NCBI GenBank assembly: GCA_042571645.1
Contig: JBHPFW010000001.1
Span: 25,589-89,588 of the forward strand
Length of the DNA stretch: 64,000 nt
Reading direction: 5' to 3'
From: Nanobdellota archaeon
Lineage (GTDB): Archaea > Nanobdellota > Nanobdellia > Woesearchaeales > JBHPFW01
In this document: positions 1,670 through 60,338 of the stretch, piece by piece
How positions within the stretch are numbered: position 1 is the stretch's first letter
Layout of the letters: each line of letters opens with the position of its first letter
Made by a program: the position numbers and the translations under genes
Notes under the pieces: generated by a model
The model's input: only the letters and a program-made list of their open reading frames with translations
What the model was told of the DNA's origin: nothing
The model's database searches: none

Positions 1670-2623
1670 ATGAGTGAAGATAAAGTTTACGATGTTATTG
1701 TAATCGGTGCAGGTGCTGCAGGAATGACCTCAGCCATATATACCTGCAGAAAAGAACTCTCCACATTAATAATTGCACCAGAAGTTGGCGGCCAGACAAA
1801 TCTTACAAGCCATATTGAGAATTATCCTGGTTTTGAAGAAGCATTGGCTGGCTGGGATTTAATGAGCAAATTCAGAAAACAAGCTGAAAGATTTGGAGCA
1901 GAATTTATTACAGGAAAAGTAACAAAAGTTGAAAAAATAGCAGAGCATGATTTCAAAGTTTCTACAGAAGATGGAAAATCATTAAAATCAAAATCAATAA
2001 TGGTTGCTGCAGGAAAAGTCCCAAGAAAACTTGGCGTGCCTGGAGAAGATGATTTCTATGGCAAAGGTGTTTCTGTCTGCGTGACATGCGATGCACCTTT
2101 TTACAAAGAAAAGATTGCTGCTGTTGTAGGCGGTGGAAATTCTGCTGTTGAAGGCGCATTAGAATTATCAAATATCGCAACTAAAGTTTATTTGATTCAC
2201 AGAAGAGAAGAATTCCGAGCAGATGAAATTAGTATAGATAAAATAAAAGCAAATGAAAAAATCGAACTTCTCACAAACTCAGAAGTCAAGGAAATCAAAG
2301 GAGAACAATTTGTTAAGAGCATTAAGGTTATGAATAACAAAGATAATTCAGAAAAAGAAATTGAAGTTGATGGCGTATTCACAGAAATTGGGTATATAGC
2401 AGATACTTCATTTGTCGAAGGTGTTGTAGATCTTAATGAAAGAAAAGAAATAACTATTGATTCAAATAACAGAACATCACAATCAGGAATATTTGCAGCA
2501 GGAGACATAACAAACGTACCCTATAAACAAACAGTAATCTCTGCAGGTGAAGGTGCAAAAGCTGCATTGGAATGTTACAAATATGTTACAGGTCATGATT
2601 TAGGAGATTCAGTTAGTAAATAA
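1670..2623 (+). CDS. trxB: Thioredoxin-disulfide reductase
   Basis: FAD GxGxxG (VIGAGAAGMTSA), redox CVTC motif in VCVTCDAPFY, second dinucleotide motif GGGNSAVEGA, C-terminal AAGD. SD-like GGGGG upstream. Confidence 0.9.
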   Translation: MSEDKVYDVIVIGAGAAGMTSAIYTCRKELSTLIIAPEVGGQTNLTSHIENYPGFEEALAGWDLMSKFRKQAERFGAEFITGKVTKVEKIAEHDFKVSTEDGKSLKSKSIMVAAGKVPRKLGVPGEDDFYGKGVSVCVTCDAPFYKEKIAAVVGGGNSAVEGALELSNIATKVYLIHRREEFRADEISIDKIKANEKIELLTNSEVKEIKGEQFVKSIKVMNNKDNSEKEIEVDGVFTEIGYIADTSFVEGVVDLNERKEITIDSNNRTSQSGIFAAGDITNVPYKQTVISAGEGAKAALECYKYVTGHDLGDSVSK

Positions 2624-2640
2624 ATCAGGGGGGATATATT

Positions 2641-3576
2641 ATGAAAAAAATAAGTGTTATTGGTGCAGGATATGTTGGTTCAACAACAGCATTGAAACTT
2701 GCACAAGATAATCTTGGAGATATTGTGCTTGTAGATAGGGAAGAAGGCCGACCAAAAGGTTTAGCCTTGGATATTATGCAGTCATTGCCATTAGTTGGAA
2801 GTTCATCAAAGGTTACAGGAACAGCAGATCCAAAAGACATCAAAGGTTCTGATATTGTAATAATTACAGCTGGAAAGCCAAGAACACCTGGAATGACCAG
2901 AGAAGACTTGATGAGAGATAATGCAAATATTGTTAAGAGTATTGCAACATATGTCAAGGAACAAGCTCCAGACTGTATTTTAATTGTGGTTACAAATCCT
3001 TTGGACATTATGACTTATCTTGCTAAGCAAATTACTGGCTTTCCTAAGGAAAGAGTTGTTGGAATGGCAGGCATACTTGACTCAACAAGATTCAGGGCAT
3101 TTATTGGAATGGAACTCAACACAACAGTGCATGAAGTCTCTGCTTTAGTTCTTGGAAGCCATGGTGACTCAATGGTGCCAGTACCTGAGTGCTCTACAGT
3201 TTCAGGAATCCCTATAACCAAGCTAATGGACAAAGAAGCTATTGATAGATTATCTGAAAGAACAAGAAAAGGCGGCGGAGAGATTGTGGGATTGCTAAAA
3301 ACAGGTTCTGCTTATTATGCTCCTGCTGCATGTATTGCAGAAATGGTCAGAGCTATTGTTAATGATGAAAAGAAAATCCTGCCTTGCTCAGCACTTCTTG
3401 AAGGAGAATATGATGGCAAAGAGGTCTATATTGGTGTACCAGTAAGACTTGGATCTAAAGGTATGGAAAAGATTGAAGTCATAGACTTTGAATCAGAAAC
3501 CAAAGAATCCTTAGCCAAAACCATAGAAGCAGCCAAGAAGAACATAGAAACTCTGAAGGGTTTGGTTGAGTTTTAG
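2641..3576 (+). CDS. mdh: Malate dehydrogenase (LDH-like, NAD-dependent)
   Basis: N-terminal ISVIGAGYVGSTTA, GKPRTPGMTREDL substrate loop, VTNPLD, GSHGDSMVP. Confidence 0.9.
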   Translation: MKKISVIGAGYVGSTTALKLAQDNLGDIVLVDREEGRPKGLALDIMQSLPLVGSSSKVTGTADPKDIKGSDIVIITAGKPRTPGMTREDLMRDNANIVKSIATYVKEQAPDCILIVVTNPLDIMTYLAKQITGFPKERVVGMAGILDSTRFRAFIGMELNTTVHEVSALVLGSHGDSMVPVPECSTVSGIPITKLMDKEAIDRLSERTRKGGGEIVGLLKTGSAYYAPAACIAEMVRAIVNDEKKILPCSALLEGEYDGKEVYIGVPVRLGSKGMEKIEVIDFESETKESLAKTIEAAKKNIETLKGLVEF

Positions 3577-9659: not shown

Positions 9660-10994
9660 TTATTTGTTTTTACCCGTTCCCTTGCTTGAAGATTCTTCTT
9701 CATCTTCTGATTCATCTTCGTCTTCATCCTCAGTTTCAGACTCATCTTCATCTTCAGAATCTTCTTCATCACTGTCTTTGTCTTTCTTGGATTTACTCTC
9801 TGTTTCGGTCTCTGTATCTTCTTCAGATTCTTCTTCATCTACATCCTCAGCATCAGACTCATCTTCAGATTCTTCATCTTCAGTTTCTTCTTCATTACTG
9901 CTTTTGTCTTTCTTAGACTTGCCTTTTGATTTCTCTTCAACTTCAGACTCAATCTCTGCTTCGATCTCTTCAACTTCAGAATCTCCAACATCTTTCTTAG
10001 CTTTTATTTTAACTTTGATCTTGTTTTTCTTTACTTCAATTTGGGCATTAGCCTGGCCAGCTTCTTCAGCCATACCAGAAACCATTGCTTCAATTTGAGC
10101 TCGTTGTTCTTCTGAAAGCTTGCCTTTGATTTTAACTTCAATTTTGTTTTTTAGAACTTTTACATTCTCAACATGTTCTTGAAGTTCTTGCTGAATCTCA
10201 GTTACTTCTTCTAATTCACCTTCAGCATCACCATTGCCAATCTCAGAAATCTCTTCTTCTACTTCTTCAAGAATCTCATCATGCGCTTTTTGAGCTTTAG
10301 CAGCCTTGTCAAGCTTTTTCTGAGAAATCATGGATTGTACTTCAGCTAATCTTTCTTGAGCATGAGCTAATCCCTTTTTAGCTTTAGCAGCTTTATTGAA
10401 TGTTAAAGCCAAACTTATTCTCTCCATAGCTCTTTCTAAGCCGTATAATGGGCTATCAGGTGTGATTCCTGCTTCATCCTCAACTTCTGGTTCAAGCTCG
10501 ATTAATTCTTCTTCAGTTTCTTCTTCTGTTTCTCCCGCTTCGTCATCTGAACCATCTGTTTCTCCAGCTTCATCTGTACTATCATCAGATTCTTCATCAG
10601 AGGTTTCTTCTGAACTTTCATCTTCAGTTTCTTCTTCTAATTCTTCCTCTGTTTCATCTTCAACTTTGTCATCAGAACTTTCTTCATCTGTTTCTTCAGC
10701 TTCATCAGAGCTTTCGTCTGAATCATCTATTTCGTCAGATGTGTCATCTGTACTATCTCCAGAATCATCATCTGAACTTTCATCTTCAGAAGTTTCTTCT
10801 TCACTATCAGATGTGTCATCTGTGCTATCCCCTGACTCATCATCTGAGCTTTCATCATCTCCAGATTCAACAGTTATACCCTCATCTTCTGAAGATCCCT
10901 CATCACCATTAGTGGTGTCTTCTTGGGCTAGTGCTCCTGCAAATGCAGTAAGCATCATAATTAAAATCACAAAAATTGTTGTTATTTTTTTCAT
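9660..10994 (-). CDS. Secreted/anchored hyper-acidic protein with central helical (DUF5667-like) domain
   Basis: Signal/TM MKKITTIFVILIMMLTAFAGALA. Long D/E/S-rich tracts with internal DNA-level repeats. Central PDSPLYGLERAMERISLALTF...AKAKKGLAHAQERLAEV helical core. The track start (GTG 11009) was replaced by the ATG at 10994. Confidence 0.75.
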   Translation of the reverse strand: MKKITTIFVILIMMLTAFAGALAQEDTTNGDEGSSEDEGITVESGDDESSDDESGDSTDDTSDSEEETSEDESSDDDSGDSTDDTSDEIDDSDESSDEAEETDEESSDDKVEDETEEELEEETEDESSEETSDEESDDSTDEAGETDGSDDEAGETEEETEEELIELEPEVEDEAGITPDSPLYGLERAMERISLALTFNKAAKAKKGLAHAQERLAEVQSMISQKKLDKAAKAQKAHDEILEEVEEEISEIGNGDAEGELEEVTEIQQELQEHVENVKVLKNKIEVKIKGKLSEEQRAQIEAMVSGMAEEAGQANAQIEVKKNKIKVKIKAKKDVGDSEVEEIEAEIESEVEEKSKGKSKKDKSSNEEETEDEESEDESDAEDVDEEESEEDTETETESKSKKDKDSDEEDSEDEDESETEDEDEDESEDEEESSSKGTGKNK

Positions 10995-16408: not shown

Positions 16409-17146
16409 TCAAAACCCATCCAATTTCCTTTGCTTTTTATCATGCCTTTCTAAATACTTGGGAGGGTTAATTGCTCTGAATTCAAAACCAAAATCATTTA
16501 GCATTTTTTCTGTGTTTTTGGAAATCTTTGGTGCAACCAATATTCCTCTGACTTTGTCTAAGCCTTTTGCTTTCTTAATCTTTTCCACATACCTACGCAA
16601 TTGACTTACTGCTTTCAGATCTCCTTGGAATCTTTTGCATTCAATAACAACTAAGGCATTATCTTTATCATAACCAAACACATCAATAAAACCATACTTA
16701 GTGTGTTCTTCTCTTGTTAATGGTTTAAAACCATCTTCAATTAAATTTGGATCATTGAATATCATGTCAGCCATATCTTTTTCTGAACCAGCTAACTGAA
16801 TTTTCTGATCATCTTCTAATGGATGAGTATTAAGAAAATGTATTTCTTTTATCTTAAGATCCAAATATTCCTTTAATCCTAAATTTTTTGTTTTAAACAA
16901 AATATGATCTTTATTAATTTCCAAATCAAAACTGCAGCCTTCTTTCATATAATTTATAGGGGTATTTCCTTTTGGCTGGTGTATCAGCAAAGTATTATCT
17001 GCTTTTATTATTACAACTCTATCTCCTACTGGAAGAAAACTCTCTGCTCTGCCAGAATAAACAACTTCACAATTACATCCAAAAACTACTGTTTCATTTC
17101 TGGCTATAGCTTCCTGAATAGTATCACTAAATTTATTGAACTCCAA
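16409..17146 (-). CDS. nucS: Endonuclease NucS/EndoMS
   Basis: N-terminal beta-barrel region (GDRVVIIKADNTLLIHQP) and a C-terminal RecB-like nuclease core (GFIDVFGYDKDNALVVIECKR). Apparent TTG start. Confidence 0.9.
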   Translation of the reverse strand: MEFNKFSDTIQEAIARNETVVFGCNCEVVYSGRAESFLPVGDRVVIIKADNTLLIHQPKGNTPINYMKEGCSFDLEINKDHILFKTKNLGLKEYLDLKIKEIHFLNTHPLEDDQKIQLAGSEKDMADMIFNDPNLIEDGFKPLTREEHTKYGFIDVFGYDKDNALVVIECKRFQGDLKAVSQLRRYVEKIKKAKGLDKVRGILVAPKISKNTEKMLNDFGFEFRAINPPKYLERHDKKQRKLDGF

Positions 17147-17370: not shown

Positions 17371-18081
17371 ATGCAAAGAACATATTTTCCGCCGAGAGTG
17401 CCAGAAATAAAAAGTAGATTGCTGGATGAAGCTTATATAGAAATCTATAAATCTAGAGCGGATATTATAAAACAATTCGATACTGGACAAGCATGTTTTA
17501 TGGGCGGGTCTATTGATTATAATCCCGGTCTGATTCTGGATGTAGCATGTGGATGCGGCGGTTCTTCTTATAATATAGCGAAGAAATTCCCTGATTCAGA
17601 AGTAATTGGAATAGACAAGGACGAATCAGCTCTAGAAGTTGCAAATGAACTTTTTAGTGATCTTGAAAATATAAGCTTTGAGTCAGGAAATGTTTATGAC
17701 TTAAAAAGATATCGAGGTGCCGCAAGCATAGTAAGTGTTCTTAACTCCTTACATCATTTTAACAATTTGAGGTTAGCATTAAAACAAATTTATGATTCCT
17801 TGCAGCAAGGAGGAGAGTTCTTCTTCCAGGATTTGGATCGTATGGCGCAAGATAGTTTTTTGGAAAAAATGGTTATTGGCGGCTATATTCTTTCAAGAAT
17901 ACTAATCCCTGATAAGGTATACTTAAAATTGGTTAAAAGGGATGCCCTTTTTTTAAGCCTTTTATCCTCTGTAGCTGCTTATACCCCTTTAGAAATTAAA
18001 CGTGCCCTCGAAAAAGAGAATTTTTCTGTTAATTTTATTGAACCTATAGAAGAGTCATATAGAGGATTTGCCTCTAAGTAA
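17371..18081 (+). CDS. Class I SAM-dependent methyltransferase
   Basis: Motif I ILDVACGCGGSS, motif post-I GIDKDESAL. Confidence 0.75.
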   Translation: MQRTYFPPRVPEIKSRLLDEAYIEIYKSRADIIKQFDTGQACFMGGSIDYNPGLILDVACGCGGSSYNIAKKFPDSEVIGIDKDESALEVANELFSDLENISFESGNVYDLKRYRGAASIVSVLNSLHHFNNLRLALKQIYDSLQQGGEFFFQDLDRMAQDSFLEKMVIGGYILSRILIPDKVYLKLVKRDALFLSLLSSVAAYTPLEIKRALEKENFSVNFIEPIEESYRGFASK

Positions 18082-18093
18082 GTAAGAAATAAA

Positions 18094-18236
18094 TGAGCCC
18101 GAGAGGATTCGAACCCCTGACCTGCCGGTCCCTGGCCAGAGTTGCAATAGCAGACTCTTGAAGCCGGCCGTACTATTTGCCTTAAGGCAAACCCACAAAT
18201 CGCAGATTTGTTGTATCCAGACTATACTACGGGCCC
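18094..18236 (-). tRNA. tRNA with two introns (D-arm region about 41 nt; anticodon loop 28 nt). Best BHB fold gives tRNA-Arg(UCG)
   Basis: Read on the minus strand: acceptor GGGCCCG/CGGGCTC, D arm GTAT-AGTCTGG..TA-GTAC, anticodon stem GCCGG/CCGGC, variable AGGTC, T arm AGGGG-TTCGAAT-CCTCT, discriminator A. No encoded CCA. 143 nt = 74 + 41 + 28. Confidence 0.8.
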
Positions 18237-18347
18237 ATATTAGCTAGCATGATTGGGGTATTTAAAAGATTTATGGCGAAAATGGTCATTAAATCACCAA
18301 AAATCATGAGAAAACTTAAAAATAACCCCTTATTACCTTATTTAAAA

Positions 18348-19154
18348 ATGTTAAATAGGCTAATCGGATTTATTGGGGCTGGAAAAATGGCTCAAGCACT
18401 TATCACGAGTTTGCTAGATACCAATACAGTAGGTTGTGGGCAAATTATTGTTGGTAATAGAAACCAGGAAAAGCTTGAATTACTGCAAAAAGAAACCTGT
18501 GTACAAGTAGCAGCTAACAATATTGAAGTAGCTAAAAAATCAAGTATCTTATTTCTTACAGTTAAACCGCAAGATATGGATTCATTATTGGATGAAATAA
18601 AGGATACTGTAAAAGAAGACCAGATCATAATCTCAATAGCTGCAGGTATTAGTATAGAACAATTAGAATCAAAACTTAAAGCGAAAGTAGTAAGAGTGAT
18701 GCCTAACACTCCCTGCATTGTTGGAGAAATGGCTGCTGGTTATTCATTTGGAAAAGGAATAAAGAATGATGATAAAACTGCAGTTGAAGAATTGCTTAAT
18801 GCTGCTGGAGTTGCAATTGAAGTTGAAGAAGAAAAACTTGATGCAGTTACTGGACTTAGTGGTTCTGGGCCTGCATTTGTTGCATTACTAATCCAAGCAT
18901 TTCAGGAAGCAGGAACTAATCAAGGTCTCAATAAAGAAGAATCTACTAAATTAGCAGTCCAAACTTTCTTAGGTACAGCAAAACTTTTGAAAGAAAAAGA
19001 AATCTCTGCAGAGGAATTAATCAAAATAGTTGCCAGCCCCGGTGGCACAACTGAAAAAGGTTTAGAAGTACTTAATAATTCTAATATCAAAGAACTTATT
19101 GAAAATGCAGTAGTTGCTGCAGCAAGAAGAAGCAAAGAGCTAAGAAGCAAATAA
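18348..19154 (+). CDS. proC: Pyrroline-5-carboxylate reductase
   Basis: IGFIGAGKMAQAL Rossmann start, PNTPCIVGEMAAGY, SPGGTTEKGL. The track start (18249) was moved to the ATG at 18348. Confidence 0.85.
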   Translation: MLNRLIGFIGAGKMAQALITSLLDTNTVGCGQIIVGNRNQEKLELLQKETCVQVAANNIEVAKKSSILFLTVKPQDMDSLLDEIKDTVKEDQIIISIAAGISIEQLESKLKAKVVRVMPNTPCIVGEMAAGYSFGKGIKNDDKTAVEELLNAAGVAIEVEEEKLDAVTGLSGSGPAFVALLIQAFQEAGTNQGLNKEESTKLAVQTFLGTAKLLKEKEISAEELIKIVASPGGTTEKGLEVLNNSNIKELIENAVVAAARRSKELRSK

Positions 19155-60195: not shown

Positions 60196-60338
60196 CGCCC
60201 GCGCGAGGAATTCCACAACCACACATTTGTATGATTCTCTTGAACCCCGGTTTCAGCCTTTTTACTTCTAAAAGAACCGCAAGGCTGTGTACTTTATGGC
60301 GATCAACTAAATGATCAAATCCACTATACTACGCGGGC
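60196..60338 (-). tRNA. tRNA-Arg(GCG) with three introns (D loop about 24 nt, canonical 37/38 17 nt, T loop 29 nt)
   Basis: Minus strand: acceptor GCCCGCG/CGCGGGC, D arm GTAT..GTAC, anticodon stem CAGCC/GGCTG with loop TTGCGG|17 nt|A, T stem CGGGG/CCTCG with loop TTCAA|29 nt|TT, discriminator G. 143 nt = 73 + about 70. Confidence 0.8.

Follow-up and report, generated by a model that had tools for sequence, protein, structure and literature searches.

An interrupted tRNA gene in the genome of a DPANN (Woesearchaeales-type) archaeon raises the question of which anticodon its mature product carries. Depending on where an insert in the anticodon loop is cut out, the product would bear either UCG, the anticodon of an arginine tRNA, or UCA, the anticodon of an opal suppressor or a selenocysteine tRNA. 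The genome, which we label G000, is represented by a 1.49-Mb assembly that is 82% complete, and the gene lies in a 64,000-nt stretch of it that we refer to as the window. A preliminary description of the window had placed a 143-nt tRNA gene at 18094-18236, and the Rfam tRNA model RF00005 matches identical coordinates on the minus strand (18236..18094; 38.9 bits, gathering score 29, model positions 1-71). The RF00005 alignment contains an insert of 47 nt in the D region and one of 30 nt in the anticodon loop, the latter being placed after CUUCA. All of the strings quoted earlier are present in the DNA, namely GCCGG, CTTCAAGAGT...CCAGGGA and CCGGC in the anticodon arm, the helix strands GGCT/GGCC and AGAGT/ACTCT, and the bulges TCA and AGG. 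The arithmetic was also correct: a cut at the 37/38 position leaves the loop CUUCAAA, with the anticodon UCA. Nevertheless, the evidence set out below leads us to conclude that this is very probably a working-looking tRNA-Arg(UCG) gene with two bulge-helix-bulge (BHB) introns, one of which is located inside the anticodon triplet, between positions 35 and 36.

On the evidence of the Rfam match and of a single solution that satisfies both the BHB and the cloverleaf, the complete gene (18094..18236, minus strand, 143 nt) would be made up of three exons and two introns, with the CCA end not encoded. Exon 1 (18217..18236, minus strand; gene positions 1-20, GGGCCCGTAGTATAGTCTGG) contains the 5' strands of the acceptor and D stems, U8 and the D loop as far as G19, and it matches the tRNA-Arg(UCG) of relatives. 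It is followed by intron 1, which a BHB scan places in the D loop between G19 and A20 (18177..18216, minus strand), with a helix GUCU/AGGC and the bulges GG^A and AA^A. Exon 2 (18160..18176, minus strand; gene positions 61-77, ATAGTACGGCCGGCTTC) spans A20 to C35, its 3' end consisting of the anticodon bases U34 and C35. Intron 2, 28 nt in length (18132..18159, minus strand), separates C35 from G36 and can form a helix GGCU/GGCC, the bulges UC^A and AG^G, and a 5-bp inner helix, AGAGU/ACUCU. Finally, exon 3 (18094..18131, minus strand; gene positions 106-143, GGACCGGCAGGTCAGGGGTTCGAATCCTCTCGGGCTCA) extends from G36 to the discriminator base A73 and is a 100% BLAST match to the mature query. Of the two intron lengths proposed previously, about 41 and 28 nt, the second stands (18159..18132), but the D-loop intron is 40 nt (18216..18177). 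The D loop of the spliced product, AGUCUGGAUA, includes A20, and its GGATAG is found in nearly all of the relatives listed; this fixes intron 1 at 40 nt with A20 kept, as removal of 41 nt would give U20.

To place the splice sites, we applied the rule that a BHB consists of a 4-bp helix between two 3-nt bulges and that each strand is cut after the second base of its bulge. This cutting rule was compared with the anticodon-intron pair of yeast. Possible introns in the gene were enumerated exhaustively, and the gene was then searched for combinations of BHB introns and a cloverleaf in a manner blind to isotype. The blind search returned one solution only, with introns of 40 and 28 nt and the anticodon TCG. 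The claim that the 35/36 register contains the sole strict BHB therefore survives both approaches, each of which recovers the 28-nt intron and the loop CTTCGGA. Eight registers leave a 7-nt loop, and besides 35/36 a 4/4 central helix is found in just one of them, where it lacks a flanking helix. The 37/38 register pairs only two of the four central-helix positions (C32-G and U33-A). As a control for chance, the 35 nt between the halves of the anticodon stem were shuffled 20,000 times and any of the eight registers was allowed; a 4/4 central helix combined with an inner helix of 5 bp or more arose in 38 of the 20,000 shuffles. Registers that would give AGG, UGG or UCA anticodons were considered and set aside, as none has a BHB with a flanking helix. 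The UGG case corresponds to a cut one base earlier, at 34/35, which would give the loop CUUGGGA and hence a tRNA-Pro(UGG). Taking out 28 nt in this register does leave a 7-nt loop with U33 and G37, but the central helix is absent and the body of the tRNA matches Arg, not Pro. We regard this reading as so improbable that it can be neglected.

The predicted folding of the precursor speaks partly for and partly against the two introns as assigned. When the complete precursor is folded by minimum free energy, the central helix GGCU/GGCC, the inner helix AGAGU/ACUCU and the UCA bulge all form, but the 3' bulge is 1 nt, not 3 nt. The outer helix of the anticodon BHB requires that the anticodon stem be shifted by one register, and four of its five pairs then form (C29-G37, G27-C39, G26-C40 and C25-G41, with a mismatch at C28-A38). 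At the D loop, the flanking helices of the BHB are just 2 bp each. The interior of intron 1 consists of two hairpins, which the full-length fold favours over the D-loop BHB, while a local fold of the D-loop region does form GUCU/AGGC.

Removal of both introns gives a 75-nt cloverleaf with stems of 7, 4, 5 and 5 bp and a 7-nt anticodon loop, CUUCGGA. All stem positions are standard pairs, three of them G-U, and the conserved positions are all kept (U8, A14, G18 G19, A21, U33, G53 U54 U55 C56, A58 and C61). The sequences on either side of the gene were read by eye. A candidate archaeal TATA box, TTTTAAATA (18259..18267, minus strand), is situated 23-31 nt upstream of G1, and its agreement with the known consensus makes a role as the promoter likely. 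Directly after A73 there is a T-rich stretch, TTTATTTCTT (18084..18093, minus strand), which is likely a termination signal. The tRNA gene itself sits within a 167-nt gap between genes for a class I methyltransferase (17371-18081) and a pyrroline-5-carboxylate reductase (18249-19154), and no mobile-element genes were found near it.

For the identity of the product we turned to relatives of the gene. The spliced sequence, used as a BLAST query against 200 further genomes sampled from its GTDB order, gave full-length, intron-less matches with 79-89% identity over the aligned length. The best of these intron-less relatives share the D arm and the anticodon arm with the spliced gene. One of them (L014) is identical to it over 39 nt, GTAGTATAGTCTGGATAGTACGGCCGGCTTCGGACCGGC, across both splice junctions. 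When the 29 best loci were fetched and given to ARAGORN, 25 were called Arg(tcg), two Lys(ctt) and one Arg(tct), with no call for the remaining locus (L060); from a wider fetch of L060, our BHB-plus-cloverleaf finder rebuilt an Arg(UCG) gene interrupted in the T loop. The query included the UCG loop, a small circularity that concerns 7 of its 74 nt and cannot account for identities of 79-89%.

The spliced product also has features that would suit it to arginine. The identity elements of ArgRS known from E. coli and yeast are C35 together with G36, as well as A20. C35, G36, A20 and G37 are all present in the spliced product, given the predicted cut sites, and charging with arginine is predicted. 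The preliminary description had further noted that the resulting G37-A38 recurs in the other Arg tRNA of the window, and this is confirmed by a tRNA-Arg(GCG) gene with three introns (60196-60338, minus strand), whose loop is TTGCGGA. Neither BLAST with the spliced query nor the BHB finder detected a second UCG-like tRNA gene in the 82%-complete assembly. Provisionally, given that level of completeness, the gene at 18094-18236 is the sole tRNA-Arg(UCG) found.

Alternatively, the insert could be removed at 37/38, in which case the CUUCAAA loop would belong either to an opal (UGA) suppressor built on an Arg-type body or to a tRNA-Sec. The uninterrupted reading of the DNA, CU-UCA-A, is in keeping with this alternative, as are the Rfam placement of the insert after CUUCA and the SeC(tca) calls that ARAGORN makes for two related genes. 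However, the 37/38 register has only half of its central helix, the body of the tRNA is orthologous to tRNA-Arg(UCG), and the codons CGA and CGG would be left with no reader; both are in use, though rare, at 1.31 and 0.51 per 1,000 codons, respectively. A tRNA-Sec is recognizable by its 9/4 (archaeal) acceptor/T architecture, long variable arm, extended D stem and G73, in addition to its UCA anticodon. The spliced product instead has a 7-bp acceptor stem and a 5-bp T stem, a 5-nt variable region, a 4-bp D stem and A73, and we rejected a tRNA-Sec identity on these grounds.

If UGA had been reassigned or were suppressed, TGA would be expected to be depleted as a stop and to occur in frame in conserved genes, which is not the picture observed. 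TGA terminates 324 of 1,088 long open segments (30%), and it is flanked by open frame on both sides no more often than TAA or TAG. Beside the tRNA gene, the NucS gene (16409-17146, minus strand) ends in a TGA stop three residues past its Pfam domain. Reading TGA as sense raises ORF coverage by only 1-3% on the two large contigs tested. Some small contigs contain ORF-free stretches of several kb, but these stay largely closed when TGA or TAG is read as sense, and the partial gains obtained with TAA are those expected for AT-rich sequence. UGA is an ordinary stop codon in G000. We therefore rejected reassignment and opal suppression, and consider it highly improbable that the product carries UCA. 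The locus is unusual, but the kind of gene is known, and there is no sign of an altered genetic code.

Is the 35/36 intron peculiar to G000? We searched 401 genomes of the order, among them G000, with two patterns and inspected the context of the matches. The central helix was fixed in both patterns, and the bulges too in the first; the looser pattern left the 5' bulge free at its third base and the 3' bulge free at its first two. The same junction, GGCT TC^A ... RGCC AR^G GACCG, was found in the tRNA-Arg(UCG) gene of five other genomes (G085, G191, G193, G252 and G315), which together with G000 span five GTDB families of one order. A scan of metagenomes yielded six further loci with a 35/36 intron, five of them distinct. 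Altogether, ten further sequences beyond G000 have an intron at the C35-G36 junction, five from genomes and five from metagenomes. The remaining pattern matches were chance occurrences outside tRNA genes, in agreement with a reversed-pattern control. In a separate pattern scan of genome contigs, all of the loci among the matches listed came from bacterial genomes, mostly of GC-rich groups, as chance matches would.

The homologous introns vary in ways that argue for the predicted structure. At the positions that the looser pattern left free, the true matches always had A as the third base of the 5' bulge, and the 3' bulge began with either AA or AG. In the central helix, the 3' strand starts with G or A, both of which pair with U33. 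The inner helix was left unconstrained in the patterns, yet it pairs in every homologous intron with a sequence that differs each time (AGAGU/ACUCU, UUAGC/GCUAA, AUAUC/GAUAU, UGAU/AUCA, an 8-bp A/U stem, and others), as is typical of compensatory changes. The outer helix, imperfect in G000, is a perfect 5 bp in G315, in G191 and in four of the five distinct metagenome sequences. For the G315 precursor, energy alone gives the exact strict hBHBh' structure, with bulges UCA and AGG. The tRNA-Arg(UCG) reading that was originally proposed is thus supported by four independent lines: the BHB register, the intron-less Arg(UCG) relatives, this recurring junction and the normal use of UGA as a stop.

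The D-loop intron has counterparts as well. One of the five genomes (G193) also has a second intron in the D region, as in G000, and another member of the order (G082) is interrupted at the D-loop site of intron 1 by an intron of 18 nt, with the junction GTCT GG^T ... AGAC AA^A. Within G000, intron 1 is about 90% identical to a 41-nt intron found at the same site in a tRNA-Arg(CCU) gene on another contig (G000:C33), a likeness that resembles the intron copying described for Thermoproteales. At the anticodon, a single genus includes one genome with a 37/38 intron (G105) and two with a 35/36 intron (G191 and G252), so the intron moves or turns over fast. Sister genomes with 37/38 and 35/36 introns in the same gene would be a clean system in which to study the movement of archaeal tRNA introns.

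Not every relative is equally clear, and some are consistent with the use of both registers, in which most precursors would give Arg(UCG) and a minority would give a UCA or aberrant-loop tRNA by way of competing anticodon-arm folds. For G191, the fold of lowest energy contains a 6-bp helix, with its 5' bulge 2 nt downstream. In G046, CTTCGGA is contiguous in the 5' exon, yet the only strict BHB, which is of the 35/36 type, would yield CTTCAAA. The 1-nt 3' bulge in the minimal fold of the G000 precursor could also be taken in this sense. Against this, the alternative registers of G000 offer no BHB with a flanking helix. In G046, TGA is the commonest stop and CGA and CGG are in use, so the functional product there must be UCG; a UCA product would do harm and is improbable as the functional one. 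It follows from G046 that BHB geometry alone can mislead in this clade. In G000, the predicted BHB geometry and homology agree, and we think it very unlikely that both registers are used.

We also asked how standard tRNA finders treat this genome. In its default mode, ARAGORN reported no tRNA in the window and none in the whole 1.49-Mb assembly; in intron mode it reported three genes across the genome, and the gene at 18094-18236 was again missed. The Rfam model, run on the window at a permissive E-value, found no tRNA besides 18094-18236 and missed the three-intron Arg(GCG) gene. Over the genome, RF00005 gave only ten weak matches, and at E <= 0.01 there was one match in G000 versus 9-43 in 20 relatives. 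About five intact T arms are present in the assembly. A screen for tRNA exons as GC islands was too unspecific, returning 747 islands. With relaxed settings, our BHB-plus-cloverleaf finder rebuilt 11 tRNA genes, all of them with one to three introns. This inventory is incomplete, as the finder omits nested introns, acceptor-stem introns and weak BHBs. Eight of the 11 appear to have a T-loop intron at 59/60, by numbering done by eye. In the whole 1.49-Mb assembly, at 82% completeness, we found no tRNA gene free of introns.

The preliminary description had warned that predictors assuming 37/38 could mis-call the gene as a suppressor or Sec tRNA, and this warning holds in part. ARAGORN does call the related genes L191 and G046 tRNA-SeC(tca), but the native gene is missed rather than mis-called, and once intron 1 is removed ARAGORN reports Arg(tcg), with intron 2 placed as here at 28 nt. 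The danger exists, but it does not extend to all tools or all genes. For annotation, placing such introns at 37/38 leads to suppressor or Sec calls, from which unfounded claims that DPANN archaea recode UGA could arise. For the grading of genomes by tRNA count, this assembly would score near zero tRNAs, though at least 11 can be rebuilt.

A gene with two inserts that is missed by the standard finders, and in which one of the BHBs (that of the D loop) is weak, might instead be a decaying or silent tRNA pseudogene whose inserts are never spliced. However, the spliced cloverleaf is fully paired and its conserved positions are kept, and the gene is accompanied by a TATA-like box and a T-rich tail. 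Moreover, it is the sole UCG gene found, all 11 of the rebuilt tRNA genes in G000 are interrupted likewise, and the intron sites are kept in other genomes. We accordingly judge a pseudogene to be a very poor prospect and favour a working tRNA-Arg(UCG) gene.

If the gene is to work, G000 must be able to splice it, and the genome encodes proteins that could do so. There is one EndA of 177 aa (PF01974, 85.6 bits in the genome and 84.6 bits in the protein; PF02778, 57.4 bits). The EndA gene (G000:C5; 1474-2007 of locus L070, minus strand) adjoins an ORF with a metallo-beta-lactamase-type HxHxDH motif, which is probably RNase Z. RtcB is encoded as well (PF01139, 570.8 bits). The closest solved relatives of the EndA are the alpha subunit of N. 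equitans (3iey_A) and the alpha4 enzyme of M. jannaschii (1a79). In a pairwise alignment, the G000 EndA is without a 6-residue insertion that precedes the catalytic His in the N. equitans alpha subunit, an insertion that we infer to be L3. No EndA paralogue or beta subunit was found in the 82%-complete assembly, and at that level of completeness a homotetramer is the likely form of the enzyme.

We propose the following pathway. The gene would be transcribed from its own TATA-like promoter into a precursor of about 143 nt. EndA would recognise the BHB at each intron and cut after the second base of the 3-nt bulges. In the D loop, cuts at GG^A and AA^A would release 40 nt and join G19 to A20; in the anticodon arm, cuts at UC^A and AG^G would release 28 nt and join C35 to G36. 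To present the second of these BHBs, G30 G31 C32 U33 would have to pair with the intron GGCC, with the outer helix slid by one register. The exons would then be sealed by RtcB, and CCA would be added to the 75-nt product. The anticodon UCG, which is non-contiguous in the DNA, would be put together only by splicing, and the mature tRNA, with its CUUCGGA loop and with A20, C35 and G37, would read the rare CGA and CGG codons. An essential anticodon can, in this scheme, be assembled by splicing, and the 35/36 site at which this would happen is found in at least five families of one order. A broader proposal is that the tRNA set of G000 is without any uninterrupted gene, so that translation is wholly dependent on EndA and RtcB, and that introns are tolerated even inside the anticodon, although the one EndA found is plain, alpha4-sized and lacking the insertion loops that are at present taken to permit non-canonical sites. 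In a rarer variant of this proposal, competing folds of the anticodon arm would cause a minority of precursors to be cut in another register, producing an opal-reading tRNA on an Arg body. We put the proposal forward tentatively, and lean against it on present evidence.

How does this gene compare with known systems? In the literature, up to 87% of tRNA genes are reported to be disrupted in archaea. In the Thermoproteales (Pyrobaculum, Thermofilum and Caldivirga), a tRNA gene may contain up to three short BHB introns at sites other than 37/38 (PMC4090602, PMC8450103). As appears to be the case in G000, these introns are cut by EndA and joined by RtcB, are missed or misplaced by standard finders, and include near-identical introns in different tRNA genes. 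The two systems differ in that G000 is the low-GC genome of a DPANN archaeon and encodes one short EndA, whereas the Thermoproteales have an (alpha-beta)2 enzyme with a crenarchaeal loop, and in that the G000 site, 35/36, lies inside the anticodon triplet. The site lists of the reviews in our comparison, which name 20/21, 22/23, 25/26, 29/30, 30/31, 45/46, 53/54, 56/57, 59/60 and 3/4 before closing with "etc.", do not name 35/36. We make no claim that the site is new, and the kind of gene, with several non-canonical BHB introns, is well known.

The tendency of such introns to be misplaced is also known. With tRNAscan-SE 2.0, 54 introns that had formerly been mis-annotated as canonical were corrected, and four non-canonical introns were still annotated, wrongly, as canonical (PMC8450103). 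The G000 gene is open to the same class of error, and here the wrong register turns UCG into UCA; we saw this error with ARAGORN in the two related genes.

Among DPANN archaea, ARMAN-2 (Ca. Micrarchaeum) has 56% of its tRNA genes disrupted and an epsilon2 EndA (PMC3239211). It resembles G000 in being a DPANN archaeon with many interrupted tRNA genes and with T-loop introns at 59/60, which apparently occur in eight of the 11 genes rebuilt here. It differs in its three-unit epsilon2 EndA with a specific loop, as opposed to the one 177-aa EndA, with no paralogue found, of G000, and in the extent of disruption, as 56% compares with no intact gene found in G000. Other DPANN lineages, with an EndA of the alpha4 type, show marked tRNA gene disruption that has been linked to the "L3" insertion, and for some DPANN genomes complete tRNA sets could not be predicted and manual curation was urged (PMC5829648). 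The gene at 18094-18236 is a case in point, as it is a tRNA gene that needs such curation. G000 departs from these lineages in that its EndA is without the 6-residue insertion of the N. equitans alpha subunit, the putative L3, and a single short EndA that faces so many odd sites would provide a direct test of the rule that relates insertion loops to substrate range.

No uninterrupted tRNA gene was found anywhere in the source genome (G000, of which the window is C1:25589-89588), and ARAGORN run without introns reported 0 tRNA genes across it. At E ≤ 0.01 the Rfam tRNA model matched this genome only once, compared with 9-43 times in 20 relatives, and only about five intact T arms are present. 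Using a finder that combines bulge-helix-bulge (BHB) candidates with a cloverleaf test, we rebuilt 11 tRNA genes, a partial inventory against the roughly 40 expected. Every one (11/11) carries one to three introns, and in 8 of the 11 an intron appears to lie at position 59/60 of the T loop. The tRNA-Arg(GCG) gene (window 60196-60338, minus strand), which was confirmed by this finder, has three: a 25-nt intron in the D loop, a 17-nt one at 37/38 and a 29-nt one in the T loop; Rfam returned no match to it, even at E ≤ 10. At G000:C10:23025-23153, ARAGORN called a Leu(taa) gene with one 36-nt intron, and the BHB-plus-cloverleaf search gave Ser(GGA) with two introns, one of 16 nt in the anticodon stem and one of 30 nt at 37/38. 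The body of this tRNA is similar to that of the Ser(UGA) gene on contig C9. The Leu(taa) label is probably another mis-call due to a non-canonical intron.

The anticodon-loop intron of tRNA-Arg(UCG) does not keep to one site in three genomes of a single GTDB genus: it lies at 37/38 in G105 (locus L043) and at 35/36 in G191 (L069) and G252 (L227). The G191 intron retains a GAAG, which could base-pair to CUUC in the manner of the canonical form. These positions and the retained GAAG hint that the intron has slid. A tRNA-Arg(UCG)-type gene of another relative, G046 (L058; G046:C36, about 265-400), looks like a hybrid of the 37/38 and 35/36 forms. Its 5' exon contains CTTCGGA unbroken, but its sole strict BHB (GGCT TC^G ... 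GGCC AG^A) would yield the loop CTTCAAA. ARAGORN labels this gene SeC(tca), and the commonest stop codon of G046 is TGA.

In the D loop of tRNA-Arg(UCG), the 40-nt intron (window 18177-18216, minus strand) is approximately 90% identical to a 41-nt intron that occupies the same G19/A20 site in tRNA-Arg(CCU), a gene on another contig (G000:C33:3826-3986). No further copies of this intron were found in the genome. The two introns are no less alike than their flanking exons (80%); the comparison suggests that intron copying or gene conversion took place between the two isoacceptor genes.

Elsewhere in the window, three segments within 1 kb (9728-9776, 10224-10287 and 10595-10652, all on the minus strand) match families of C/D-box small RNAs at sub-threshold scores. 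The best of these matches, to SNORD75 (28.3 bits, E = 0.0016), has clear C and D boxes, and several archaeal C/D sRNA genes may be clustered here. In the wider assembly, we observed stretches of 3-10 kb with few or no ORFs of at least 150 codons under standard stops on contigs C36, C37, C34 and C40 and in parts of C31, C28, C30, C26 and C13. Their GC content is near the genome value. Reading TGA or TAG as sense opened them little; with TAA as sense the gains were partial, and AT-rich sequence is expected to behave in this way.

The splicing endonuclease EndA, which cuts BHB motifs, is encoded by a single gene (L070, on G000:C5, 1474-2007, minus strand). Adjoining it is a 300-aa ORF (2126-3028, plus strand) that is probably RNase Z, judging by its metallo-beta-lactamase-type HxHxDH motif; if so, two tRNA-processing genes would lie side by side and be transcribed in opposite directions. 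The alpha subunit of the N. equitans enzyme has an insertion ahead of the catalytic His, whereas the EndA encoded here does not.
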